Sequence record: PQ850596.1 | Source of the DNA: Escherichia phage AnnaReinhart_Bas75 | DNA: 43,870 nucleotides | Reading direction: 5' to 3' (one strand) | Shown: piece after piece, positions 1,823-38,500 of the stretch | Numbering within the stretch: position 1 is the stretch's first letter | Layout of the letters: each line of letters opens with the position of its first letter | Program-made: the position numbers and the translations under genes | Notes under the pieces: generated by a model | Told to the model about the DNA's origin: nothing | What the model saw: the letters and a program-made list of their open reading frames with translations, nothing else | Databases searched by the model: none

Positions 1823-3304
1823 ATGTTAACTATGAACGGTCAGAATCAGGGTGTTAAGACAAAACACCGGGAATGGCTGCATCACTTCGATAAATGGCAG
1901 AAGGTACGCCACGCTCTTGAAGGCGACCTTATCCGCTATCTGCGCAACGTCGGGAAGAACGAGCCTGACCAGACCTACGCAGCACAGCGACAGGAAGAAT
2001 ACGAGAACGGCGCTATCTGCTACAATTTCACCAAACGCACGCTGGCGGGGATGACGGGGTCAGTGATGCGCAAAGACCCTGAGCAGATTATCCCGCCTGA
2101 ACTTGAGTACCTGTTGCACAACGCTGACGGTTCAGGTGTCGGGCTGTGGCAGCACGCGCAGGATACGCTGATGGAGATTAACTCGATAGGCCGTGGCGGG
2201 TTGCTGGTGGACGCCCCGGAAACAGCCGCAGCAACGGCGGCAGAGCAGAACGCGGGATTATTAAACCCGGTAATCGCATTCTATACCGCGGAGAACATTA
2301 TCAACTGGAGACTCACCCGCATCGGTTCAGTGAACCGCGTGACGATGGTTGTATTGCGTGAGGCATGGGAATACTCGGAACCAGGCGCTGAGTTTGAAAC
2401 AAAATTCGGCGAGCAATACCGCGTCCTTGACCTGATTGACGGTCGCTACCGCCAGCGCATCTACCGCTTCGATGCCGAAGGTGGCGCACAGGATGAAGTA
2501 ATCGAAATCTTCCCGGAACTCGGCGAACAGTTGCGCGGTAAAATCCCGTTCACGTTCATTGGCGCAAGCAACAACGACGCCACTATAGACGATGCGCCTT
2601 TACTGCCGTTAGCTGAGCTAAATATCGGTCATTTCCGCAACAGCGCAGACAATGAGGAGTCCAGCTTCGTTGTAGGCCAGCCTACTCTGTTCATCGCCCC
2701 AGGTGAGAACATGAGCATGGAGCAATGGAAAGAAGCCAACCCTCACGGTGTGCGCATGGGGTCCCGTTCAGGTCATAACATTGGTTACGGCGGCAATGCG
2801 TTTCTGGTTCAGGCAGGAGAGAACAACCTCGCCAAACAGAACATGCTGGATAAAGAGAATCAGGCCATCCAGATTGGCGCGCAGCTTATCACCCCGACGC
2901 AGCAAATCACCGCGGAATCGGCCCGCCTGCAACGCGGCGCCGACACGTCAGTCATGGCAACAATAGCACGTAATGTAAGCATGGCGTATACCGATGCGTT
3001 GCGCTGGGTTGCGGGTATGCTTGGGCTTAGTGAAGATACTGAGATTGAGTTCAAGCTGAATATGGAATTCTTCCTGCAACCTATGACAGCTCAGGACCGC
3101 GCTCAGTGGATGGCGGATATTAACGCTGGCCTGCTACCCGCCACCGCTTACTATGCTGCGTTGCGCAAGGCAGGTGTGACTGACTGGACAGATGAGGACA
3201 TTCAGAACGCTATTGAAGACGCACCTCTGCCGTTGGGTTCTGTTGCTCAGGTAGCGGGAGAGATTCCGCAGTCGGCGCAGCAACAGGACACCACTCAGCA
3301 GTAA
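1823..3304 (+). CDS. portal protein
   Basis: 493-aa ORF immediately after terL; acidic C-terminus; followed by a GNRA-loop hairpin. Assignment by size and gene order. Confidence 0.7.
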   Translation: MLTMNGQNQGVKTKHREWLHHFDKWQKVRHALEGDLIRYLRNVGKNEPDQTYAAQRQEEYENGAICYNFTKRTLAGMTGSVMRKDPEQIIPPELEYLLHNADGSGVGLWQHAQDTLMEINSIGRGGLLVDAPETAAATAAEQNAGLLNPVIAFYTAENIINWRLTRIGSVNRVTMVVLREAWEYSEPGAEFETKFGEQYRVLDLIDGRYRQRIYRFDAEGGAQDEVIEIFPELGEQLRGKIPFTFIGASNNDATIDDAPLLPLAELNIGHFRNSADNEESSFVVGQPTLFIAPGENMSMEQWKEANPHGVRMGSRSGHNIGYGGNAFLVQAGENNLAKQNMLDKENQAIQIGAQLITPTQQITAESARLQRGADTSVMATIARNVSMAYTDALRWVAGMLGLSEDTEIEFKLNMEFFLQPMTAQDRAQWMADINAGLLPATAYYAALRKAGVTDWTDEDIQNAIEDAPLPLGSVAQVAGEIPQSAQQQDTTQQ

Positions 3305-3314
3305 GTTCACCTAT

Positions 3315-3335
3315 AGCCCCGAAAGGGGCTTTCTT
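3315..3335 (+). terminator. hairpin AGCCCC-gaaa-GGGGCT followed by TTCTT; intra-operon attenuator or processing hairpin after the portal gene
   Basis: Perfect 6-bp GC-rich stem with GAAA tetraloop and short T-tract, seen directly in sequence. Confidence 0.45.
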
Positions 3336-4417: not shown

Positions 4418-4878
4418 TGATGGGCTTTTTCAAAGTAACTGACGTACCGTCTCGTCGCGTAGTCCAGTACGCCCGCGTGTCTGGCTCTGGCGAGAACGTG
4501 GTATTTATTGAGGACGAAAGTGTACTCGGTACACCGGTAGATGATATGCCGTTTGCAGATAAAACCGGTATTGCGTTGCCCGCCGCCGGTATGCTTTATG
4601 AAATTCCGTATCTGGCGGACGCTGGCGACGTGTATTTCTCTGTGCAACCAAAAGACGCTGAACTGGCCGACGGCAGCGCGACTATCACTGTCGAAGTTAA
4701 AGCAGGTGAAGCGCCGTATGCACTGACCTGGTACAAAGACGGTAAGGAAGTTGTCAACGCCCCGGAAGAGGCACTTTCCTTGACGGTTAACGCAGTGGGT
4801 GAATACTTCGTTAAAGTTACCGATGCTGATGGTGTAGAGGCTGTCAGTAAAGCTGCGAAGGTCACTAAGCCCGAATGA
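4417..4878 (+). CDS. Ig-like domain protein (possible capsid decoration protein)
   Basis: 153 aa; C-terminal segment TITVEVKAGEAPYALTWYKDGKEV...GEYFVKVTD resembles Ig-like (I-set/Big-type) domains; paralogous to 8190..8540. Confidence 0.5.
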   Translation: MMGFFKVTDVPSRRVVQYARVSGSGENVVFIEDESVLGTPVDDMPFADKTGIALPAAGMLYEIPYLADAGDVYFSVQPKDAELADGSATITVEVKAGEAPYALTWYKDGKEVVNAPEEALSLTVNAVGEYFVKVTDADGVEAVSKAAKVTKPE

Positions 4879-4881
4879 TAA

Positions 4882-4905
4882 AAGGCCCCATTAAGGGGCC
4901 TTAGT
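4882..4905. terminator. bidirectional rho-independent terminator AAGGCCCC-atta-GGGGCCTT
   Basis: 8-bp GC-rich stem flanked by A-run upstream and T-run downstream; lies between convergent genes 4417..4878 (+) and 4908..5111 (-). Confidence 0.7.
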
Positions 4906-4907
4906 TT

Positions 4908-5111
4908 TCAACGGAATCTTGTGTTTAAATCCTGCTCGTGGACGACCCTCAGAACAGTGTCATAATCCCCGTATCTTCCAGGTTCAAATATATCTAATGC
5001 CTTGTAAGCAGACATTGCGTCAGGGAAAACCTGCAGAACCTTTTTAACCCGGCACAAGTCACCGTCGAACTCTTCATCGAACTCTTGAACTACTTCGCAA
5101 ATTGCATACAT
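4908..5111 (-). CDS. hypothetical small acidic protein (67 aa), single-gene minus-strand insert
   Basis: ORF with AGGAGG RBS 8 nt before ATG, own early-type promoter (5139..5167) and shared terminator; opposite orientation to flanking structural genes. Confidence 0.6.
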   Translation of the reverse strand: MYAICEVVQEFDEEFDGDLCRVKKVLQVFPDAMSAYKALDIFEPGRYGDYDTVLRVVHEQDLNTRFR

Positions 5112-5138
5112 TTTTCACCTCCTGTTTAAGTTAACTGA

Positions 5139-5167
5139 ATAGTACCCTATTATATTGGGGTGTGCAA
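5139..5167 (-). promoter_or_regulatory. sigma70-like promoter TTGCAC-N17-TACTAT containing palindrome AATAG-N4-CTATT
   Basis: Read on minus strand: TTGCAC accccaatataataggg TACTAT, then AGGAGG RBS and ATG of 4908..5111. Near-identical to sites at 14262, 37025 and 38441. Confidence 0.6.
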
Positions 5168-7833: not shown

Positions 7834-7860
7834 GAGAGGGACTTCGGTCCCTCTTTTCAT
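7834..7860 (+). terminator. hairpin GAGAGGGAC-ttcg-GTCCCTCT followed by TTTCATTT (terminator/attenuator after capsid gene)
   Basis: 9-bp stem with one mismatch, UUCG tetraloop, T-rich tail. Confidence 0.6.
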
Positions 7861-8189: not shown

Positions 8190-8540
8190 ATGGTTGATGT
8201 AATCAAACGTCGTATTACTGGTGTTTCTGATGATTCTCCTGCCGATGGTCAGGTTGAAATCGATATGGCGAATATCTCGCCCGCATCTTTTTCTACCGCA
8301 CTTGCCGCTACCACTACCAAGTCTACGGGGCAGACGATGACTCTTACCGTAGCCGTAACTGGCGGTCTGGCCCCGTACACATACCAGTGGTACAAAGATA
8401 ACAACGCTATCCCAGGCGCTACCGCCGCCACCTACGAGAAAACTTCGCTCGCTACTACCGATTCCGGTACGTATAAAGTGGTTGTCCACGATGTATATGG
8501 TAATATTATCTCCAGCAGCACCGTAGCAACTGTATCTTAA
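8190..8540 (+). CDS. Ig-like domain protein (possible capsid decoration protein)
   Basis: 116 aa; motif MTLTVAVTGGLAPYTYQWYKDNNAI...GTYKVVVHD matches Ig-like domain signature and parallels 4417..4878. Confidence 0.55.
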   Translation: MVDVIKRRITGVSDDSPADGQVEIDMANISPASFSTALAATTTKSTGQTMTLTVAVTGGLAPYTYQWYKDNNAIPGATAATYEKTSLATTDSGTYKVVVHDVYGNIISSSTVATVS

Positions 8541-8545
8541 TACCG

Positions 8546-8561
8546 CGGCCCTTCGGGGCCG
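8546..8561 (+). other. stable hairpin CGGCCC-ttcg-GGGCCG (no T-tract)
   Basis: Perfect 6-bp GC stem with UUCG tetraloop directly after the stop of 8190..8540. Confidence 0.5.
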
Positions 8562-8576
8562 TAATAAGGAAAGGTC

Positions 8577-11288: not shown

Positions 11289-12455
11289 ATGGCTACAACT
11301 CCTTTTAAGGGCGCGAATACCGCGCAATTCTATGTGGCGGAAACTACCCCTGGCGTAACACCGACTAACCCGGTATGGTCGCCGTTGCGTAACACGGGCG
11401 GCGTTCCCGCTGTAACCCGCGATGCACTGACTTCCAACGAACTGGACGGCAGCCGTGAAACTACATCCATCCGAACCGGTAACAAGCAGGTTAGCGGGGA
11501 GTATGCCATCGAACTTAGCTCTCGTAGCCAGGATGATTTCCTTGCGGGAGCGATGACTTCTACGTGGCAAGCTGGGGTAGAGATTACTGGCGCCGGAATT
11601 ACGGTCGCCCCAGCAGGTAAAACATTCACCCGCGCTGCCGGTAGCTTCATTACTGACGGTGTAGAAGTTGGCGACCTTATTGCGTTCACCGACTTAACCG
11701 GCGACAACGCAAAACCGTTTATCGTGACCGCGGTTTCCGCTCTGGTAGTTACGGGCGCAGGTATTCAACACACGCTGACAGCAGAGACAGTAACCACTGA
11801 CGCAAAAACTGGCGACAAGCTGGAAACCGGTAACGCGTGTAAGACGTTCTCCATCCTGACGTGGTTCAAGGGCCAGTGTGGTAACCCGGACGCGTACATG
11901 CTGACCAAAGGTGTGGAAATCTCTGGCTTTACCGTAGAGCAGGCGGTTAACGCCATGGTCACCGGCAGCTTCCCGTTCATCGGCCTGAGTCAGGAGATTC
12001 TTACCGCGCCGCCGTCTGGCTCTGATTTCTCTCAGGTTACGTTCACCGATGAGCCGTTCTCGTCGGTAGATGTGTCGGTGTTCGATGGCTCCACGCCGTT
12101 GCGTTGCGATACTCTCACCATCACCAACGACAACGGAGCTTCCGCGCAGTTCGAACTCGGTAACAGTAGCGTGGCGTTCGTCGAACGTGGACGCGCAGCT
12201 AACACATTCTCTATCTCTGGCAAGCTGTACGACATGGCGATGATTCAGAAGTTTATCAACGAGCAGCAGGTAGAGATTAACTCTATTCTGGCAGGGGTAA
12301 ACGGGGCTATGTCTTTCAGTTTGAAACGTGCAGAGCTTACGGCGGTTACACCTGAGATTGGTGGGCCTGAGTCAATCACTCAGTCCATTGAAGGCCAGGC
12401 TACCGGCAATCAGTACCAGTCGTCTATCGTAATTCAACGTATCACCTACGCATAA
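11289..12455 (+). CDS. major tail protein
   Basis: 389 aa, Thr/Gly/Ala-rich; AAGAGG RBS; followed by strong terminator; located upstream of chaperone-tape measure genes. Confidence 0.6.
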   Translation: MATTPFKGANTAQFYVAETTPGVTPTNPVWSPLRNTGGVPAVTRDALTSNELDGSRETTSIRTGNKQVSGEYAIELSSRSQDDFLAGAMTSTWQAGVEITGAGITVAPAGKTFTRAAGSFITDGVEVGDLIAFTDLTGDNAKPFIVTAVSALVVTGAGIQHTLTAETVTTDAKTGDKLETGNACKTFSILTWFKGQCGNPDAYMLTKGVEISGFTVEQAVNAMVTGSFPFIGLSQEILTAPPSGSDFSQVTFTDEPFSSVDVSVFDGSTPLRCDTLTITNDNGASAQFELGNSSVAFVERGRAANTFSISGKLYDMAMIQKFINEQQVEINSILAGVNGAMSFSLKRAELTAVTPEIGGPESITQSIEGQATGNQYQSSIVIQRITYA

Positions 12456-12460
12456 AACTA

Positions 12461-12483
12461 AGGCCCCTTTCGGGGCCTTTTTC
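12461..12483. terminator. bidirectional terminator AGGCCCC-tttc-GGGGCCT with flanking A and T runs
   Basis: Between convergent major tail gene (+) and minus-strand cassette; same stem sequence as terminators at 4882 and 24518. Confidence 0.7.
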
Positions 12484-12714
12484 TCACTCATCAATATTAC
12501 TTCGATACTCCCGTAACTTCTCCAGACTTTCAATTGCTTCTGCTAAGTCGGTTCCGGTGTCCTTATGCCCGCGAAGACCCATGCACAATAACTTCTTCAA
12601 TGCGTGCTGTAGTGCGGGGTCACGGATGTCGAAGGCACGGAGAACATCGTAAACGTCTACGGTCATAGTGCTGCCGTGAGTGTTTGTCATTGTTCGGTTG
12701 TATTTTGAAGTCAT
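12484..12714 (-). CDS. hypothetical protein (76 aa), last gene of minus-strand insert
   Basis: Start overlaps stop of phosphoesterase gene; no recognisable motif. Confidence 0.5.
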   Translation of the reverse strand: MTSKYNRTMTNTHGSTMTVDVYDVLRAFDIRDPALQHALKKLLCMGLRGHKDTGTDLAEAIESLEKLREYRSNIDE

Positions 12715-13841
12715 CCCAGCATCTCCGGTGAAATAGTTAAACGTGCGACCTCGCCATATTCGGCGCTATAAGTAATTACATTTGCACTACGGCCTGACAT
12801 CCACCCGCCGCGGGAGGCATAGGCGTCTTTAGCCGCTAAGGTGCGGTGTTGCTCAACAATCATGTTACGGCTTTCTACAATCTTCTGGTGGTGCAGGTGG
12901 CCTACGTGGGCGTAGCTATAGACACTCTCACCGAACGCTTTGCGGAATTTGGCAATCATAACCGGTTCGATAGCATCGAATCGCGCCTTATGCCCGTGGT
13001 GAAAGAACAACGTCGTTTTTCCGTGTTGCACCATCTTGTAAACATCCGGCGACGTATCGACAATCACTCGGCTGTCGTTCGAATATAAAACTGTGAACAT
13101 TTCAGCCAGCCATACAGAGCCTACAGGGTCATGGTTCCCCTGTACGATAAGCAAGCGAACATTTTTATGTTTAACCAGTGCCATATCTACAACACGGCGT
13201 ACCATACGAATCATGTAGCGGACGAGTTTCTGGTAGCGAGTGTCTGCGTCCAACACGTGACGCGACTCAGGTGTAACGGCATCCAGACTATCGAAGTGCG
13301 CGAAATCACCCAGCAGGTTAATAACTCCTGTTCCTGCATCCGGTGCTTTCTGAAACGCCGCGTCGAACCAACGAGAGAACAGGTCTTCCGCAATCTTTAT
13401 ATCCCAGTCGTCGCCGCTCTCGTCGGCCCAGGCAAGCATACCGAGATGGAAATCAGATACCGTGTAAAGATTGAGTAGCTTGTCGTCGCGTTTGGCTCGA
13501 GTCGCTTTAGCCGGCGCAACTGGCGTAATCTCTGACTTCATGCCTTCAATCACGGCTTTCATCAACTCGACCTGACGTTCAGCGTCGGTGTCTGTCTTAA
13601 CCCATTGCAACTTAGTATTGCCGAACTCGTCTACCAGAGACGACGTCCCTTTAATCTTGTAGCCGTCTGGGACAAGGTGGCTAACGTCACGCCCGTGGCC
13701 TACACCTTTCTTAGCCAGCTTCGCTTTACGGATACGAATAACTCGGTCTGAGATGCCGTATTTACGGGCGATGTCTACATTCTTCATCCCGGCGTTCAAT
13801 TCTTCCTGTAACTGTTCGTCGGTTATTTTCTTCTGGGCCAT
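12711..13841 (-). CDS. HTH domain fused to calcineurin-like metallophosphoesterase
   Basis: 376 aa; N-terminal HTH-like segment (KNVDIARKYGISDRVIRIRKAKL); C-terminal phosphoesterase motifs in order: SDFHLG (D-x-H), GDFAHFD (GD-x-x-D), GNHD, then His-rich HHGH and GHLHH. Confidence 0.7.
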   Translation of the reverse strand: MAQKKITDEQLQEELNAGMKNVDIARKYGISDRVIRIRKAKLAKKGVGHGRDVSHLVPDGYKIKGTSSLVDEFGNTKLQWVKTDTDAERQVELMKAVIEGMKSEITPVAPAKATRAKRDDKLLNLYTVSDFHLGMLAWADESGDDWDIKIAEDLFSRWFDAAFQKAPDAGTGVINLLGDFAHFDSLDAVTPESRHVLDADTRYQKLVRYMIRMVRRVVDMALVKHKNVRLLIVQGNHDPVGSVWLAEMFTVLYSNDSRVIVDTSPDVYKMVQHGKTTLFFHHGHKARFDAIEPVMIAKFRKAFGESVYSYAHVGHLHHQKIVESRNMIVEQHRTLAAKDAYASRGGWMSGRSANVITYSAEYGEVARLTISPEMLG

Positions 13842-13906
13842 GCTTACTTCCTCGTGTTTAGGATTTGTCCTATTTAACCACAGTGGATTCCTTTAAATAA
13901 AGGCAA

Positions 13907-14233
13907 CTATTTACTTTCTGCGCCTATCGCCCACCCTGTCATTACCATTTGCAGACGGGTGGCTGTCAGTAGGCTATAGAAAGCATCTCCGTTTTTCTCT
14001 ACCGAACGTATCACTGTGTAGGTTACGGCCTGCGGGGGTAGGCCCGATTTACCAACCTCCACGGCGGCCTCACACTCGCGAACTGTAGAGTCCTTGAACG
14101 CCTTTACAATAGTAGGGTCGGCTTTATCAAGCACACCAGAAGTCATAAGAACAGATTCACTAAATACCTGTTCGCACGGGGCTCCAAAAGTAGCAAAAGA
14201 CATAAAACCCAGAGCTAGTACTAATTTACGCAT
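13907..14233 (-). CDS. secreted/periplasmic small protein (108 aa) with N-terminal signal peptide
   Basis: MRKLVLALGFMSFATFGA signal-peptide-like N-terminus; GAGGA RBS; first gene downstream of early-type promoter 14262..14290. Confidence 0.55.
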   Translation of the reverse strand: MRKLVLALGFMSFATFGAPCEQVFSESVLMTSGVLDKADPTIVKAFKDSTVRECEAAVEVGKSGLPPQAVTYTVIRSVEKNGDAFYSLLTATRLQMVMTGWAIGAESK

Positions 14234-14261
14234 AATTATTTCCTCAGTAAGTTACATGTGA

Positions 14262-14290
14262 ATAGTACCCTATTATATTGGGGTGTGCAA
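14262..14290 (-). promoter_or_regulatory. sigma70-like promoter TTGCAC-N17-TACTAT with AATAG-N4-CTATT palindrome
   Basis: Identical 29-bp core to 5139..5167; drives minus-strand cassette 14233..12484. Confidence 0.6.
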
Positions 14291-14814: not shown

Positions 14815-15176
14815 AAGCGCTGTATGAATTTGCGCAATGGTGCTTTGTCGACCGCCACAAACGTAAGCAATTCGACGACATCGCGGCGGGCCACCAGGCG
14901 GCTTTGATTGCAATGGGCGTGATTAAAGAACCGCAGATGAAAGAAGCGACGGGGCCGGAATGCCCCGTTTCTCTTATCGACGTGTTCGAGAAATACCGTG
15001 CCATTAAATTCCTACAGCGCGAAACAGATGATACTATCGTTATAATCCCGCGCGATGCGCTCAAATGGCAAGATTTGGTAGCGTTTCGTGATGTCGCCGG
15101 TTACGGCATAAGTTTGTTCGAAGCCGAGGTTATCATGGGCTTAGACGGAATATTTGAGGGCAGAGAAGATGGCTGA
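14398..15176 (+). CDS. tail assembly chaperone frameshift fusion (gpGT-like), requires -1 shift near 14805..14811
   Basis: -1 frame opens at 14796 (after TGA 14793-14795) and runs to 15176; zero frame stops at 14812; candidate slippery heptamer G GAA AAG at 14805-14811. Fusion ends where tape measure starts. Confidence 0.55.
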
Positions 15177-22332: not shown

Positions 22333-24513
22333 ATGTCAAGCGGATGCGGTGACGTTTTAAGCCTGGTGGATTTACAAACCGCCAAGAAACACCAGATTTT
22401 CGAGGCCGAGGTTATCACCGGTAAAGCTGGCGGTGTAGCTACGGGTGCTGATATTGATTACGCAACTAATCAGGTTACGGGACAGACACAGAAGACGTTG
22501 CCAGCCGTGTTGCGTGACGCCGGGTTCAGACCTGCGCCATTCACATTCGAAACAGGTGGGACTTTGGGCGTTAACGACGCTGACCTGGCGGTGTTGTGGC
22601 CAGGGCCATCAGGCGACGGCAACTATTATGCATGGAAAGGTGCCCTGCCAAAAACCATCCCGGCATCCTCAACGCCAGCATCTACGGGCGGAGTAGGCCA
22701 GACCGCATGGGTTGCCGTTAGTGAAGCTGCATTGCGCCGTGATTTGGCCCTAAGCACTGGCGCAGGGTTAGTTGGGACAACATCCGGCAGGACCGTACAG
22801 GCAGAGTTTGACTACCGCAAGACTCAAGCAGCAAAAACAGAGATAAACATACTTGACTACCTTCCAGCTAACGTGATCGCAGCTCTAAACGATGTTAACG
22901 CGTCAAAAGCACTAGGAAGCGTAAGGACATACATTGAGCAGGCTTTAGCGGCAGCAACTAGCGAGAATATCGGTACTGGGGTTACTTTACGTTTCCCGGC
23001 TGGGTTCTTTTGGCTTGATTCTACTCTTAACCTTCCAAAAAGGACGCGTATTGTTGGGGTCTACCCAGAAACATACTTTATGGCTCTCCCTGACTTTACT
23101 GGCACTAACGTAATTGCCGGTTCCACAGGACCCGCTATAGTCGCTATTGATAACACAGGACAAGACCCGTTTTATATTGAAGGTTTCCAGATAAACGCAG
23201 ATGGTTCCCAGCCGAATGTGGTTGGGCTGCACATTGGCGGCTGCCGTAATTCCGTCGTCCGTCGGATATCTGTATCTGGAACCTTCGATGCTGCTGTTGT
23301 TATCCACCCTAAAAACGCAACATCTGGAGACGTGGAGAACCTGGAATTAAGCCACGTATGGACATTAGGCGGTGGGCTTGTGCTCAGGACTAATACAGAT
23401 ATCGACCGTGGAAATTTAACAGGCCTGTCATTCCGGGATTGTATGTTTTTCAGCACAATCGGCAACAACCCTTCATGGGCGACATCTGGCAACCCTAGTA
23501 TCAGGTTCTCCTGCCATGTAGACCGACAGATTTTTGCATGTACATTCGACCGTGTAGGATGGGCGAGTCGCGCAACATACGCCATCTATTCAGAAAGCCT
23601 AGCCGGAAATAGTGCATCTGATGTCAAGGGCTTCCGCGATATTCATTTTACAGATTTCCACGGAGAAGCCCACAATGCCGATGGGTCATTAACAGCGGAC
23701 TGTACTTTTGCCCTTCTTGCGAATATGCGTAACAGTACATTTACTAATATCCAACGCTCCGGCGCTGTGACTCGCGGCGGCATTATCATGGATGGGTGCG
23801 AATACGTAACATTCAACTCAGTATCATTTGCGGACCCTAATATCACAACAGGAACAACGACACCTTGTTGCGTATACCAGAACTCCACCAACAGATTTAA
23901 TAGATTTATTAACTGTGACTTAACAGATGCAACCGGGAGCATGTTTGATTTAGCCGGTTGGACCGTGTCATCCAGTGTAATGTATTATTTTAAGGGTCTT
24001 TTTTGGGACGATAGTGGGACAAGTACCTGGGAGAGTGAACAAATGTCTTCAAAACCATTTGTTCTTTTTAAAAGGTCTGCGCTTAACGCCAATAACGGTT
24101 CTGCTTACCCGCAGGAATCAGGCGTAACTATGGCTACTTCTGGTGATAATCTACAGGTTACCTTTGCACGAGACGCTACCACAAAAACATTCACAATACC
24201 AATCACAACTACAAACGCTGTTTTCAACAACCACGACCGTGTTTATGTCCTATTCCGTCATCAGTTCACTAGCTATGGCACTGGCACAGTTGTAAAAATA
24301 GGGCTTGGAACATCCTATGTGACTATCTCACCTCAGACAGGGAACGATTATTTTGCGGCTATTAGCTTAGCACGTAGCCAGGCTACTAGTTTTAATATAC
24401 AAGTAACCTATAGCGGGGCCTCAGCTGACTGCGGAATATTAATTAGGGATTTAATTATTTCTGACAGGATGCCGTGGGTGCCGAACTTCACCAAAGCATT
24501 ACTTTGCGATTAA
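22333..24513 (+). CDS. tailspike / receptor-binding protein with probable beta-helix polysaccharide depolymerase domain
   Basis: 726 aa; N-terminal segment typical of tail-fibre anchor domains; central/C-terminal region shows repetitive Gly/Asn/Ser/Thr-rich pattern of beta-helix enzymes; last structural gene; GC drops in the 3' part. Confidence 0.55.
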   Translation: MSSGCGDVLSLVDLQTAKKHQIFEAEVITGKAGGVATGADIDYATNQVTGQTQKTLPAVLRDAGFRPAPFTFETGGTLGVNDADLAVLWPGPSGDGNYYAWKGALPKTIPASSTPASTGGVGQTAWVAVSEAALRRDLALSTGAGLVGTTSGRTVQAEFDYRKTQAAKTEINILDYLPANVIAALNDVNASKALGSVRTYIEQALAAATSENIGTGVTLRFPAGFFWLDSTLNLPKRTRIVGVYPETYFMALPDFTGTNVIAGSTGPAIVAIDNTGQDPFYIEGFQINADGSQPNVVGLHIGGCRNSVVRRISVSGTFDAAVVIHPKNATSGDVENLELSHVWTLGGGLVLRTNTDIDRGNLTGLSFRDCMFFSTIGNNPSWATSGNPSIRFSCHVDRQIFACTFDRVGWASRATYAIYSESLAGNSASDVKGFRDIHFTDFHGEAHNADGSLTADCTFALLANMRNSTFTNIQRSGAVTRGGIIMDGCEYVTFNSVSFADPNITTGTTTPCCVYQNSTNRFNRFINCDLTDATGSMFDLAGWTVSSSVMYYFKGLFWDDSGTSTWESEQMSSKPFVLFKRSALNANNGSAYPQESGVTMATSGDNLQVTFARDATTKTFTIPITTTNAVFNNHDRVYVLFRHQFTSYGTGTVVKIGLGTSYVTISPQTGNDYFAAISLARSQATSFNIQVTYSGASADCGILIRDLIISDRMPWVPNFTKALLCD

Positions 24514-24517
24514 AACT

Positions 24518-24540
24518 AAGGCCCCAAACGGGGCCTTTTC
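24518..24540. terminator. bidirectional terminator AAGGCCCC-aaac-GGGGCCTT
   Basis: Between convergent tailspike (+) and minus-strand replication-module genes; same stem as 4882 and 12461. Confidence 0.7.
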
Positions 24541-24541
24541 T

Positions 24542-27260: not shown

Positions 27261-27579
27261 TTCTCAATTCCTTATATTGTTGGTGTATGTGCTTACTATA
27301 ATAGTCTGCTATTAGGGTGTCAATCTGTTTTATCGAACCAACGACAAAAACATTTGCACCACGTTTACGCATCCGCTCGTGCTCTCGTAACTGGTGCGGG
27401 TCTGGCTTCGTGTTTTCGTCTTTCTTAACCTCGACGAACCAGATGATGCCACCAGGGAGAATTACCAGCAGGTCGGGGGCGCCGGAGCGCCCCTCATAAG
27501 ACAGCTTACGAACGAGGCCACCAATGGCCTCGAATCGCTCTTTTGCGTATTTCTGCACGCGCCCCTCAGGCGTACTCAT
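27226..27579 (-). CDS. VRR-NUC domain nuclease
   Basis: 117 aa; PD-(D/E)xK-type core (GAPDLLVIL ... FVEVKK). Confidence 0.65.
   Translation of the reverse strand: MSTPEGRVQKYAKERFEAIGGLVRKLSYEGRSGAPDLLVILPGGIIWFVEVKKDENTKPDPHQLREHERMRKRGANVFVVGSIKQIDTLIADYYSKHIHQQYKELRNETRIRPQTST
27295..27323 (-). promoter_or_regulatory. sigma70 promoter TTGACA-N17-TATAGT with AATAG-N4-CTATT palindrome in spacer
   Basis: Minus strand reads TTGACA ccctaatagcagactat TATAGT; embedded in 3' coding region of VRR-NUC gene, upstream of 27069..27260. Confidence 0.55.
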
Positions 27580-30114: not shown

Positions 30115-30134
30115 GATTTTTGACCCCTAGTAAA

Positions 30135-30154
30135 AAGGCCCAATGAAGGGCCTT
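30135..30154 (-). terminator. rho-independent terminator AAGGCCC-N-GGGCCTT with T-run on minus strand
   Basis: Directly downstream of stop of 30174..30800. Confidence 0.6.
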
Positions 30155-30173
30155 AGTTAAATTGATTCAGATA

Positions 30174-30800
30174 TTAGCGGCGGCGACGTTCGCGGCGCGG
30201 TGCTTCATCTTCTTCGTCGTCTTCCAGGTCATTGACGCTCGCAGCGACTTTAGAACCGCCGAACGCTTTGCCTTCGCCAACGTATTTAATCGCCAGCAGG
30301 TTAACGCCGAGGACTTTGTATTTCTGGCTGAACCAGATTTCAACGCTTACGTTAGCTAAGCATCCGCTGTAAACCTGTTCACCTTCAATCTGTTCGCCGT
30401 CTACGTTGAAGTCCTGCTCTACCTGAGTCTCACCTTTTTTAGAGGTTACAATCAGCGGCTGTTTCTGTGCCTTCGCTTTGAAGTAGAAGCCTTCCGGGAA
30501 GTCTTCAAACGGATTGTCGCGCTCGGCAATGTCTTTAATCGCGCATTTATCCATGTGCTTACCTTCACCGTAGTTGGACTTCATCCATTTCTCGGCAGCG
30601 GCTGCGCCTAACGCTTCTTCAACTACAGCGTAAACGGTGTCGTAGAGTGCATCGATTTGAGCATGGTCAGACGGCAGGATGATAGTCGCGCTGTACTGGC
30701 CTTTAGTGATTGAGCCATCATCGTTTTCACGGTCTTTTTCACGTTCAAATACGTTAACCCAAGCAGTGTTTACTTTACGCAGATTCAGTTTAATACCCAT
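30174..30800 (-). CDS. putative ssDNA-binding protein (function tentative)
   Basis: 208 aa; C-terminal acidic stretch DLEDDEEDEA then Arg-rich tail; own strong promoter and terminator suggest high expression. Confidence 0.4.
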   Translation of the reverse strand: MGIKLNLRKVNTAWVNVFEREKDRENDDGSITKGQYSATIILPSDHAQIDALYDTVYAVVEEALGAAAAEKWMKSNYGEGKHMDKCAIKDIAERDNPFEDFPEGFYFKAKAQKQPLIVTSKKGETQVEQDFNVDGEQIEGEQVYSGCLANVSVEIWFSQKYKVLGVNLLAIKYVGEGKAFGGSKVAASVNDLEDDEEDEAPRRERRRR

Positions 30801-30859
30801 CTTAATTTCTCGCTTTTAAGTTTCGTTTACTCCGGGAAGCTGCCCGGTCAGTGATTAGA

Positions 30860-30888
30860 ACTATAATAGCTAACTATTCAGGTGTCAA
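30860..30888 (-). promoter_or_regulatory. sigma70 promoter TTGACA-N17-TATAGT with AATAG-N4-CTATT palindrome
   Basis: Minus strand reads TTGACA cctgaatagttagctat TATAGT; upstream of 30174..30800. Confidence 0.6.
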
Positions 30889-33317: not shown

Positions 33318-33408
33318 TTCTTGCGGAGCGCCGAAAATTGCTCGAAAACCTTTAGCTATGGCCCCAGTGATTGTGTTCTTATCTGCCCCTCTCGTTTGGT
33401 ATGGGCTA

Positions 33409-33437
33409 ACTATAATAGCGAACTATTCACATGTCAA
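33409..33437 (-). promoter_or_regulatory. sigma70 promoter TTGACA-N17-TATAGT with AATAG-N4-CTATT palindrome
   Basis: Minus strand reads TTGACA tgtgaatagttcgctat TATAGT; followed by conserved AAACGAGAGG leader. Confidence 0.6.
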
Positions 33438-33457
33438 TGGGCTTTTCTAAAATAATT

Positions 33458-33471
33458 AATATGGTACTATT
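33458..33471 (+). promoter_or_regulatory. second palindromic box (AATAT-ggta-CTATT) in divergent control region before the XRE gene
   Basis: Imperfect copy of the AATAG-N4-CTATT box 44 bp from the first; overlaps TACTAT that may be the -10 of the plus-strand promoter. Confidence 0.4.
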
Positions 33472-33501
33472 CACATATCAACTGACTAAGGAGTAATTGA
33501 C

Positions 33502-33717
33502 ATGCAACCATCTGAACTAGGCATCCGTGTAGAACAACGCCGCAAAGAACTCGGCATCTCCCAGCGCCGTCTGGCGGTCCTGGCTGGCGTTTCCCAGGGC
33601 GCGATTAACCAGCTTGCGCTCGGGGTAACTCAGGACGTCCGGCCGGCGACGCTGTTCAAGCTGGCGGAAGTGCTACAAGTAGACGCCAAGTGGCTGGCGT
33701 TAGGTGAAGGGGCTTAA
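33502..33717 (+). CDS. XRE-family (Cro/CI-type) HTH transcriptional regulator
   Basis: 71 aa; classic HTH_3 signature LGISQRRLAVLAGVSQGAINQLALG; AAGGAG RBS; only plus-strand gene inside the minus-strand replication module. Confidence 0.8.
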   Translation: MQPSELGIRVEQRRKELGISQRRLAVLAGVSQGAINQLALGVTQDVRPATLFKLAEVLQVDAKWLALGEGA

Positions 33718-33732
33718 AGCCCCTTTCTTTTT
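33707..33732 (+). terminator. rho-independent terminator AAGGGGC-ttaaa-GCCCCTT followed by TCTTTTT
   Basis: Hairpin overlaps the stop codon of the XRE gene; strong T-tract. Confidence 0.65.
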
Positions 33733-36067: not shown

Positions 36068-36136
36068 TGTATAATCCTTATGCTTACTTTGATGATTTGT
36101 ACTTTAGCCCCGACGTTCTGGCGTTGGGGTTTCTTT

Positions 36137-36427
36137 TTACCGTTTAGCCAACCCTTCCAGCAAATTTTTATACTCTTCAAAATATTCCTCGACCAAATCA
36201 TCGCCGAAATAGAAGTCGATATACTCGAGATTATCTCTTACGTTAAGCGATGCCGACATGGTGCTTAGTTGGCGTAAGCTAATTAGCTTCATTTCTGTTT
36301 CTACGCAGAAAGGCCGGTAGGTATCAAGATGGCAAGAGATATTGAAGCATAAAGCGAACTCTCCGGCCACGGAGTGAACCATATACACTTCGTTTTCTGC
36401 TTTATTGTGGAAAATTACGCCTTTCAT
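36137..36427 (-). CDS. hypothetical protein (96 aa)
   Basis: Start overlaps stop of upstream HTH gene; acidic C-terminus. Confidence 0.5.
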   Translation of the reverse strand: MKGVIFHNKAENEVYMVHSVAGEFALCFNISCHLDTYRPFCVETEMKLISLRQLSTMSASLNVRDNLEYIDFYFGDDLVEEYFEEYKNLLEGLAKR

Positions 36428-36606
36428 TTCACGTTCTCCTTAATCCATGCTTCGACTTTATTACGGTCAAATGTTCCCGGTAAACGGCGGCCCATAACCT
36501 TAATACAGCAGTCAGGGAATTTGCCGCTGCGCAACCAGTTATTAATCGTCTGACGTGTCACCCCGATACGTTCAGCTACTTCATTCTGCGTCATATAATG
36601 CGACAT
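36424..36606 (-). CDS. AlpA/excisionase-type HTH DNA-binding protein
   Basis: 60 aa from ATG 36606 (CAGGAGATATAAAAATG); motif TQNEVAERIGVTRQTINNWLRSGKFP. ORF-track version extends to 36720 but lacks RBS. Confidence 0.6.
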   Translation of the reverse strand: MSHYMTQNEVAERIGVTRQTINNWLRSGKFPDCCIKVMGRRLPGTFDRNKVEAWIKENVK

Positions 36607-36703
36607 TTTTATATCTCCTGTTTGTTTGGTGAAACTGAGTATAGGATAGCGGGAATGTAAAAGCAACCAATCTCTGTAATATTTAATCTTTACAAAAATG
36701 TTA

Positions 36704-36733
36704 TTGAAAGTTCTTGACACATGTTTGTATAAT
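36704..36733 (+). promoter_or_regulatory. candidate sigma70 promoter TTGAAA-N18-TATAAT
   Basis: Good -35/-10 with 18-bp spacer; no protein-coding gene follows for about 350 bp. Confidence 0.4.
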
Positions 36734-37024: not shown

Positions 37025-37053
37025 TTGCACACCCCAATATAATAGGATACTAT
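37025..37053 (+). promoter_or_regulatory. sigma70-like promoter TTGCAC-N17-TACTAT with AATAG-N4-CTATT palindrome
   Basis: Near-identical to 5139 and 14262 copies; followed by CGAAACGAGA leader, AGAGGAG RBS and ATG 37088. Confidence 0.6.
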
Positions 37054-37087
37054 TCACTTATCGAAACGAGACAGAGGAGTGGTGGTT

Positions 37088-38400: not shown

Positions 38401-38440
38401 CCTGTCCCGTGGTGACAATACAAACACCAATAAAATTTAC

Positions 38441-38469
38441 TTGCACACTAAGATAGAATAGGCTACTAT
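38441..38469 (+). promoter_or_regulatory. sigma70-like promoter TTGCAC-N17-TACTAT with AATAG-N4-CTATT palindrome
   Basis: TTGCAC actaagatagaataggc TACTAT; followed by ACAAACGAGAGGAG leader and ATG 38501. Confidence 0.6.
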
Positions 38470-38500
38470 TCATTTACACAAACGAGAGGAGAGACGGAAG

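Follow-up and report, generated by a model that had tools for sequence, protein, structure and literature searches.

Bidirectional intrinsic terminators have been reported to be pervasive between convergent bacterial genes (PMC10204088), and Ju, Li and Liu described such sites in E. coli in 2019 (as cited in PMC10204088). In phage LUZ7, the terminator T50 consists of an A-tract, a hairpin and a U-tract between convergent genes, and was found experimentally to work in both directions (PMC10204088). For the Kagunavirus vB_EcoS-Golestan, a list of terminators predicted by ARNold has been published, of which entries T06/T07, T09, T02, T01 and T04 concern us here (PMC7203180, Table S5). In T4-type phages, repeated regulatory motifs known as PeSLs (promoter-early stem-loops) lie at the boundaries of indels and replacements, and have been proposed as crossover points (PMC2839356, PMC4122927). 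The hairpins analysed here resemble LUZ7 T50 and the E. coli sites in being G/C-rich, perfect hairpins with an A-tract and a U-tract, placed between convergent stop codons. In contrast to LUZ7, whose terminators have no conserved sequence, one sequence is reused here three to five times per genome and in two genera; its activity as a terminator is predicted. That hairpins of this kind are terminators is textbook knowledge, essentially known and ordinary, and predictions for Golestan are already in print, at least as entries of its terminator list. What is new here is the link to a shared promoter, the coincidence with mosaic boundaries, an accessory gene found at two junctions, and the flipping of the loops.

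The window, that is, the whole stretch of 43,870 bases that was analysed, is a complete genome of about 44 kb of a Kagunavirus-like (Guernseyvirinae) siphophage of E. coli. Hundreds of Kagunavirus and Jerseyvirus (Guernseyvirinae) records show matches to it. Two phages of the BASEL collection, Bas70 and Bas76, are about 97% identical to it, and its first 20 kb show 95–98% identity to Bas70, Bas72 and Bas76 of the same collection. The annotations of Bas76 and Bas70 can be carried over nearly base for base. Positions 1–24513 hold the plus-strand head and tail genes, and inside this structural region lie two minus-strand islands, at 4908–5111 and at 12484–14233, the second of which reaches about 14350 going by the annotation of Bas76 and Bas70. 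From 24540 to about 36700 there is a long minus-strand replication region, beyond which the early and lysis genes lie on the plus strand. The annotations of the two close relatives examined contain no phage RNA polymerase. For the comparison with relatives, about 140 related loci were taken from IMG/VR by anchoring on the tail tube protein and on the helicase, and Bas76, Bas70 and Salmonella phage Jersey were compared as whole genomes. The four hairpin sites were named S1 (4882), S2 (12460), S3 (24518) and S4 (30135):

S1, positions 4879–4908 (stem 4882–4902), both strands: AAGGCCCC-ATTAA-GGGGCCTT with a 5-nt loop; predicted bidirectional terminator.
S1 extended motif, positions 4879–4908, minus-strand reading: AAAACTAAGGCCCC..GGGGCCTTTTA.
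S2, positions 12454–12483 (stem 12460–12479), both strands: AAAACT-AAGGCCCC-TTTC-GGGGCCTT-TTTC with a 4-nt loop; predicted bidirectional terminator.
S3, positions 24512–24541 (stem 24518–24537), both strands: AAAACT-AAGGCCCC-AAAC-GGGGCCTT-TTCT with a 4-nt loop; predicted bidirectional terminator.
S4, positions 30131–30160 (stem 30135–30154), minus strand: AAGGCCC-TTCATT-GGGCCTT-TTTAC; predicted one-way terminator or attenuator.

A preliminary description of this DNA had pointed to a near-identical stem at three sites and a shortened version at a fourth, and these are indeed present. Outside S1, S2 and S3, neither of the arms AAGGCCCC and GGGGCCTT is present in the 43,870 bases, and the pattern with a 4-nt loop, allowing up to two mismatches, gave three matches compared with 0.00 expected (100 dinucleotide shuffles). 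The 4-nt loop that had been described for the family holds for S2 and S3, but not for S1, where the loop has 5 nt. The likeness continues past the stem, as AAAACT-AAGGCCCC-N4-5-GGGGCCTT-TT when the copies are brought into a common orientation, and all four hairpins can then be written as (A)AACT-AAGGCCC(C)-loop-(G)GGGCCTT-TT. The strand that carries this orientation is minus for S1 and S4 and plus for S2 and S3; in plus-strand reading, S4 is AAGGCCC-AATGAA-GGGCCTT, with a 7-bp stem and a 6-nt loop. Independent repeat finding also returned the hairpins, as families D9 (S2), D12 and I4 (S1), and I4–I7. A second in-frame stop codon provided by AAAACTAA was considered as a general explanation and rejected, being true at S2 and false at S1.

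As had been described, the first three hairpins all lie at convergent junctions, each between the ends of a plus-strand and a minus-strand gene. S1 has the Hoc-like head decoration gene (plus, ends 4878) on one side and the 67-aa gene (minus, ends 4908) on the other, S2 is placed between the tail tube/minor tail gene (plus, ends 12455) and a 76-aa gene (minus, ends 12484), and S3 between the tailspike gene (plus, ends 24513) and the end of the minus-strand replication operon. The junction at S4 is not convergent, its two neighbours being minus-strand genes, namely a gp2.5-like ssDNA-binding gene (ends 30174) and a small ORF that is followed by the DNA polymerase gene.

The stems of S1–S3 are perfect over 8 bp, consisting of a 6-bp G/C core and two A-T pairs. 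They begin 4–6 nt past the plus-strand stop codons at 4878, 12455 and 24513, with about 3–6 nt to the minus-strand stop codon, and S4 is found 20 nt past the minus-strand stop at 30174. The free-energy calculation proposed in the preliminary description gave about -15 kcal/mol for S1–S3 and, for the shorter S4, -12 to -13 kcal/mol, in each case on either strand, and the folding z-scores relative to shuffles ranged from -2.8 to -5.7 (10 nt of flank on each side). Within 8 nt past the GC core we counted 5–6 U on both strands at S1–S3 and on the minus strand at S4 (tail UUUUUACU), while the plus-strand tail of S4 is poor (TTAGTTAA, 4 U in 8). Past the GC core, the plus and minus tails are UUAGUUUU and UUUUAUCA at S1, UUUUUCUC and UUAGUUUU at S2, and UUUUCUCU and UUAGUUUU at S3. 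Each of S1–S3 has one uninterrupted tail (UUUUUC, UUUUCU or UUUUAU), and the other tail is always the interrupted UUAGUUUU, which may make termination weaker in that direction. A simple scan with a terminator consensus picked S1 on the minus strand, S2 on the minus strand, and S3 on both strands. In stem, loop and fold, in the U-tract, in the position just past a stop codon and in being non-coding, the hairpins have the features of intrinsic terminators; the combination of an A-tract, a U-tract and convergent genes that marks the bidirectional type is found at S1–S3, and not at S4. Our literature search returned in-silico lists of terminators, but no mapping of 3' ends in this phage or in another member of the Guernseyvirinae, and the sole RNA-seq study of a Kagunavirus among its results is at gene level, without mapping of transcript ends.

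Taken together, these features make it probable (roughly 0.8) that the four hairpins are intrinsic terminators for the host RNA polymerase, S1–S3 acting in both directions and S4 in the minus direction only, and that the copies are nearly identical by common descent of a small portable cassette, and not by chance. The reused bidirectional terminator of the preliminary description thus finds support for S1–S3 in every available computational test, and has to be given up for S4, which is predicted to be one-way (minus) and lies within an operon. The stems of S1–S3 each stand between an A-rich and a T-rich run, and transcripts of either strand would therefore end in a hairpin followed by a U-tract. 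In this arrangement S1–S3 would keep the structural operons of the plus strand apart from three minus-strand units (the 67-aa gene, the phosphoesterase island and the replication operon), and as they stand between opposing units, we propose that they prevent convergent read-through and antisense transcription. If plus-strand termination at S1 and S2 is efficient, the late genes downstream would need their own promoters or antitermination. S4 would most likely lower transcription into the polymerase gene; a stoichiometric attenuation is plausible at this place between the ssDNA-binding and polymerase genes, and S4 is the best candidate for such a role.

Three further hairpins are found within the late operon:

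Positions 3315–3330, plus strand: GAAA hairpin after the portal gene, AGCCCC-GAAA-GGGGCT followed by TTCTTAT; one-way and terminator-like.
Positions 7834–7855, plus strand: UUCG hairpin after the major capsid gene, GAGAGGGAC-TTCG-GTCCCTCTT followed by TTCATTT.
Positions 8545–8562, plus strand: TTCG hairpin after the Hoc-like gene 8190–8540, CGGCCC-TTCG-GGGCCG; intergenic and conserved.

It had been suggested earlier that such tetraloop hairpins follow genes of abundant proteins and set protein stoichiometry by attenuation. All three hairpins exist, but the portal protein is not abundant. The hairpin at 8545–8562 is not followed by a T-tract on the plus strand, and because it lacks a U-tract it is not a canonical terminator or attenuator. 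The hairpin at 7834–7855 keeps its position in relatives with compensatory changes in the stem, and its loop is always of the UNCG type. It is a well-supported prediction of a one-way terminator or attenuator, and attenuation for stoichiometry is plausible at this capsid-gene hairpin in view of its conservation, its compensatory changes and its UNCG-type loops.

Stable stems right after stop codons might also serve as stabilisers of 3' ends against exonucleases, transcription being ended elsewhere by Rho or by polymerase collision. The genome does have, at 8545–8562, a conserved hairpin without a U-tract, and head-on collisions of polymerases have been reported to aid two-way termination, according to work cited in PMC10204088. 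A pure stabiliser, however, has no need of the U-rich tails that S1–S3 show on both strands, and we regard this explanation as very unlikely compared with intrinsic termination.

In the terminator list of Golestan, T06 and T07 form a plus/minus pair at the S2 position, after the tail tube gene, and read GGCCCC-GAAA/TTTC-GGGGCC-TTAGTTTT/TTTTTC (PMC7203180). The same list includes GGCCCC-GTTT-GGGGCC at the tailspike junction, a GAAA hairpin after the portal gene and, as T04, a UUCG hairpin after the capsid gene, which is the counterpart of the hairpin at 7834–7855 (PMC7203180). In the available part of that report the hairpins stand as list entries, and it makes no mention there of sequence reuse, a link to promoters, mosaic boundaries or loop flips (PMC7203180).

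Beyond Golestan, more than 100 relatives in two genera share hairpins at the same junctions. Among the IMG/VR relatives, the family hairpin was found at the same junction in 26 cases for S1, 41 for S2, 50 for S3 and 36 for S4, and Salmonella phage Jersey has five copies, the extra one being located after the portal gene beside a minus-strand amidase gene. In nearly all relatives the stop codon of the tail tube gene is followed by a hairpin, and a few have a weaker one or none. The S2 stem of Kagunavirus and Jerseyvirus-type contigs is AAGGCCCC/GGGGCCTT. At about 70% identity of the tail tube protein, relatives have AAAGGGGC/GCCCCTTT, AAGGGCC/GGCCCTT, the arm-swapped GGGGCC/GGCCCC or longer, unrelated stems at the S2 position; these stems were compared by direct inspection of the relatives' sequences rather than by alignment. 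When the S2 region was aligned (MAFFT/RNAalifold), changes on both sides that keep the pair were seen in 3 of 6 pairs, which is a lower bound, the distant hairpins being partly out of register in the alignment. As unrelated stems occupy the same spot in distant relatives, it appears to be the structure that matters, and not the sequence.

These comparisons also bear on the idea that the hairpin is a site recognised by a phage or host factor, such as an antiterminator, RNase III, a processing nuclease or a homing endonuclease, with termination as a secondary effect. Such a site could account for a stem that stays the same in two genera while the sequence around it diverges by 10–30%, for the loop and flanks of S4, which are invariant in 35 of 36 relatives, and for the HNH endonuclease genes that adjoin S2 and S3 in some relatives. 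On the other hand, the unrelated stems at the same position in distant relatives imply that no particular sequence is required, the loops, which are the surface usually recognised by proteins, are free and even inverted at S1–S3, and a scan of the whole window with Rfam 15 returned 0 matches at the gathering score. Of the alternatives discussed in this work, we consider recognition by such a factor the least probable.

How far the likeness of the copies could have arisen by independent convergence on an A-run, a G/C core and a T-run, with GGCCCC/GGGGCC as a favoured core, can be judged from a scan of IMG/VR for the bare stem. It found at least 120 loci. Among the matches listed, 114 of 120 were in unrelated contigs, mostly with A- or T-rich sequence at the flanks, and 117 of 120 had one copy per locus. 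Because the stem occurs as single copies in unrelated viral contigs among these listed matches, we take it to be a generic good terminator. Other terminators of this genome also contain G4/C4, namely AGCCCC/GGGGCT, ACGGGGC/GCCCCGT and AAGGGGCT/AGCCCCTT, and part of the likeness among the copies could be convergence, the stem being generic. Convergence does not readily explain, however, why this clade has 4–5 copies per genome with a recurrent 6-nt flank, AAAACT/AGTTTT, whereas the unrelated contigs are single-copy and an ACT/AGT flank was seen in only 5 of 116 unrelated-contig hairpins among the matches listed; nor does it explain that an accessory gene changes its junction together with the hairpin, as described below. 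The AAAACT/AGTTTT flank is missing from the unrelated contigs among the matches listed, and reuse of the stem with this flank is specific to this clade. Convergence as the general explanation is thus unlikely, although we would place it first among the alternatives to common descent.

Two other origins were rejected. A host origin, or membership of a REP-like family, was tried by comparing the S2 47-mer with 5,426 complete E. coli genomes, which yielded no full-length match and three partial ones, with 47–70% query cover and E-values of 3–9. A REP/BIME or MITE-like repeat was discarded as well, there being four copies in the window and a shared unit of the hairpin plus at most 6 nt.

The loops of S1–S3 behave differently from the stems. 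They occur as exact reverse-complement pairs with the flanks unchanged: TTTC in 21 and GAAA in 13 cases at S2, AAAC in 19 and GTTT in 8 at S3, and several pairs at S1, and the same loop pairs turn up at different sites. In pairwise comparisons of S2 copies with 93–97% identity in the gene-side flank, 36 pairs had the same loop, 27 had the reverse complement and 16 had another loop. At the one-way hairpins (S4, 7834 and 8552), no reverse-complement loops were found among the relatives sampled, and the hairpin at 8545–8562 retains its TTCG loop in relatives. Minute inversions of loops, caused by template switching in palindromes, are known in the non-coding DNA of chloroplasts and, in E. coli, through quasipalindrome mutagenesis. 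The flips seen here are like these inversions in that the loop is swapped for its exact reverse complement with stem and flanks unchanged. They are unlike them in being seen only in two-way hairpins, with none in the one-way hairpins of similar geometry among the relatives sampled, and this restriction points to a filter of selection on top of the mutational mechanism. The flips may have come about by palindrome-mediated template switching, or by conversion between oppositely oriented copies, such that stems would be retained while loops are free to invert through the palindrome. Their survival in two-way hairpins only would fit a selection that is indifferent to the strand.

Apart from the hairpins, one non-coding repeat family stands out in the window, a promoter-operator element with eight copies. 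It is a sigma-70-type promoter, TTGACA-17-TATAGT or TTGCAC-17-TACTAT, and the palindrome AATAG-N5-CTATT is embedded in its spacer and -10 region. The copies and the gene associated with the hairpins are as follows:

Promoter-operator repeat, positions 5136–5167, minus strand: TTGCAC-N17-TACTAT; predicted to drive the 67-aa gene ending at S1.
Promoter-operator repeat, positions 14259–14290, minus strand: predicted to drive the minus-strand island ending at S2.
Promoter, positions 27294–27323, minus strand: TTGACA-17-TATAGT with AATAG-N5-CTATT; the last of this kind before the genes ending at S3, the final block of the replication operon.
Promoter of the same type, positions 30859–30888, minus strand: immediately precedes the ssDNA-binding gene, the transcript of which would run into S4.
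67-aa accessory gene, positions 4908–5111, minus strand: lies between the promoter-operator repeat and S1; relatives lack it or have other genes in its place.

The copies at 5136–5167 and 14259–14290 are 100% identical over 32 nt (repeat family D6), the first also falling in family I1 and the second in I2 and I3, while those at 27294–27323 and 30859–30888 belong to D1, the latter to D2 as well. At 37.0 and 38.4 kb, near-identical copies stand ahead of early genes on the plus strand. The "phage promoters" given by PHIRE for Golestan and fBC-Eco01 correspond to these repeats. Candidates for a protein that binds AATAG-N5-CTATT would be the product of 33502–33717 (plus), which in the relatives has a counterpart annotated as transcriptional regulator, and that of 36424–36720 (minus), apparently the equivalent of an excisionase-like regulator gene of the relatives. 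Searches of the small minus-strand ORFs against Pfam and PHROGs returned no informative function. The minus-strand units would thus start at a shared promoter-operator repeat and stop at a hairpin, and from their position in the sequence the hairpins are the presumed downstream brackets of similarly controlled units. Because the units at S1 and S2 sit antisense in the structural region, their terminators would have to act both ways.

Lambdoid phages have accessory genes with their own promoter and terminator between core genes, the morons of Juhala and Hendrix. The unit of the 67-aa gene (4908–5111) is like a moron in all these respects, with the promoter repeat at one end and S1 at the other, and it lies antisense among the head genes and is variably present. 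Unlike morons, the modules found here share one promoter type and one terminator sequence, which suggests that they belong to a common pool and perhaps have a common mechanism of movement.

In order to locate mosaic boundaries, we aligned 250 nt on either side of each family hairpin to the window. Loci with one homologous flank outnumbered those with both, by 46 vs 1 at S3, 26 vs 13 at S2 and 17 vs 5 at S1. In the 46 loci at S3 it was the helicase-side flank alone that aligned, the tailspike side being variable. At S2, homology was gone within about 10 nt of the stem, and in relatives the interval from the hairpin to the phosphoesterase gene holds genes for an HNH endonuclease, Ant/Roi or a kinase. 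At S1, the 67-aa gene is missing in contigs L146, L149 and L185, and others have a 173-aa gene instead; L146 and L149 have lost the S1 gene and retained the hairpin. The 173-aa gene (minus strand, PHROG 3007) is part of a sequence of about 585 bp that abuts the S1 hairpin in seven contigs. In contig L137 this sequence abuts the hairpin after the portal gene instead of S1, and the vacated S1 position is taken by a one-way terminator, AAGCCCC-GAAA-GGGGCTT. The window likewise has the one-way AGCCCC-GAAA-GGGGCT after its portal gene (3315), where no minus-strand gene is found, and portal junctions that do have a minus-strand accessory gene show a AAGGCCCC hairpin instead (L123, L133, L136, L137, L147, L149, L177 and L185).

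Judging solely from the positions of these boundaries, we infer that recombination has probably taken place at the hairpins, and that the hairpin may be the joint for accessory modules or may travel with them. The units would be modules of accessory genes that phages acquire, lose and shift from one junction to another, with the hairpin as the border between conserved and variable sequence. This recalls the PeSLs, as the repeats lie at boundaries of insertions, deletions and replacements among close relatives, which is the case at S1–S3. In contrast to the PeSL, which is a single composite of terminator and promoter, the promoter and terminator here are at opposite ends of a unit, 0.2–2 kb or more apart, and the hairpin unit is about 30 bp without promoter hexamers. 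PeSLs also come in dozens of copies, compared with 4–5 here, where no circular intermediates are known. Because the composite motif of promoter and stem-loop is absent, we do not file the hairpins as PeSLs.

The same boundaries raise the question of whether the element acts at the level of DNA, as a cruciform or recombination hot spot that drives module exchange, with the RNA hairpin incidental. The coincidence of hairpins and mosaic boundaries, the presence of one accessory gene at two different junctions, and the inversion of loops, itself a DNA-level process, would all be in agreement with this, and PeSL motifs of T4-type phages have been implicated in such shuffling (PMC2839356, PMC4122927). 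A pure DNA element, however, needs neither the U-tract geometry nor the position after a stop codon that every copy shows, and the coincidence with mosaic boundaries is to be expected anyway, because gene ends are natural boundaries of viable recombinants. We hold this explanation to be highly improbable, and prefer terminators of common descent. On the basis of such terminators we offer a further proposal, tentatively and at clearly less than even odds: that the palindromic terminator of about 30 bp (AAAACTAAGGCCCC-loop-GGGGCCTT-TTTT) and the promoter-operator repeat form, in the Guernseyvirinae, a portable bracket of accessory and early genes, and that recombination at the hairpins moves such genes among at least five fixed junctions and swaps tailspike modules.

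Collectively, these results provide a transcription map for a widely used group of phages, to which members of the BASEL collection and therapy candidates belong, with early-type units that would be bracketed and lie antisense in the structural region. The hairpins mark the exact joints of tailspike and accessory-gene exchange, which may be useful for host-range engineering and for seeing how recombination is directed, and short, strong two-way terminators are wanted as parts for synthetic biology. Loop orientation, if the pattern is general, would allow bidirectional terminators to be recognised from comparative sequence data. Should the portable bracket prove true, it would be for siphophages what the PeSL system is for T4-type phages, and free loop inversion would be an evolutionary signature that separates two-way from one-way terminators.

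Members of the hairpin family to which the four near-identical predicted terminators of the window belong vary in related phages. In the IMG/VR relative L142, the hairpin at 3099-3138 is fully symmetric, AAAACTAAGGCCCC-GAAA-GGGGCCTTAGTTTT, with arms of 14 nt, and this symmetry suggests that the cassette may originally have been a perfect palindrome of greater length. In some relatives an extra copy of the short form, AAGGCCC-GAAA-GGGCCTT, was found 3' of the tape measure gene, at the equivalent of window position ~17480:

L127, 16095: extra short hairpin
L142, 8746: extra short hairpin
L208, 19698: extra short hairpin

In all three, this hairpin adjoins sequence without a counterpart in the window, and with the post-tape-measure site the family would occupy a sixth junction. 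Two strand-switch junctions of the window carry different hairpins, and the AAGGCCCC hairpin is therefore absent from some of its strand switches:

33706-33726: one-way-looking hairpin, GAAGGGGCT-TAA-AGCCCCTTT
36106-36131: one-way-looking hairpin, 11-bp stem, AGCCCCGACG../..CGTTGGGGTT

Next to S2, the predicted bidirectional terminator that follows the tail tube gene, lies a 76-aa ORF (12484-12714, minus strand). Its similarity to PHROG 2452 is confined to the C-terminal third of the profile (positions 150-220 of 235), and its similarity to an 'ATPase' PHROG is confined in the same way. At this position relatives carry a full kinase/ATPase gene; the ORF may be the remnant of a deletion at the S2 junction.

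Two other hairpins of the window stand out:

8545-8562: UUCG hairpin CGGCCC-TTCG-GGGCCG, conserved, without a U-tract, a few nt upstream of the next gene's ribosome-binding site
14949-14968: hairpin ACGGGGC-cggaat-GCCCCGT with a T-rich tail, within the tail assembly chaperone/tape measure overlap region

The former shows a compensatory stem change in the Salmonella phage Jersey (GCGGCC-TCCG-GGCCGC). The latter is kept with covariation in the distant relatives L153, L157, L160, and L161 (AAGGGGC-cagagt-GCCCCTT), and may act by stimulating frameshifting or as an internal attenuator.

A sigma-70-type promoter repeat occurs eight times in the window, with the palindrome AATAG-N5-CTATT inside its spacer and -10 region:

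5136-5167: promoter-operator copy
14259-14290: promoter-operator copy
27294-27323: promoter-operator copy
30859-30888: promoter-operator copy
33408-33437: promoter-operator copy
33457-33481: promoter-operator copy
37025-37060: promoter-operator copy
38438-38472: promoter-operator copy

Two of the copies, each 32 nt long, show 100% identity to each other. In published genome descriptions of relatives, these repeats are labelled phage-specific promoters. Rather, they have the appearance of host promoters bearing an operator for a putative phage regulator. At 14251-14290 (and 5125-5167), the palindromic operator was observed between TTGCAC..TACTAT, a promoter on the minus strand, and an overlapping candidate promoter on the plus strand:

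14251-14279, plus strand: candidate promoter GTTACA-17-TATATT, directed toward the tail assembly genes

This arrangement could constitute an early/late switch.
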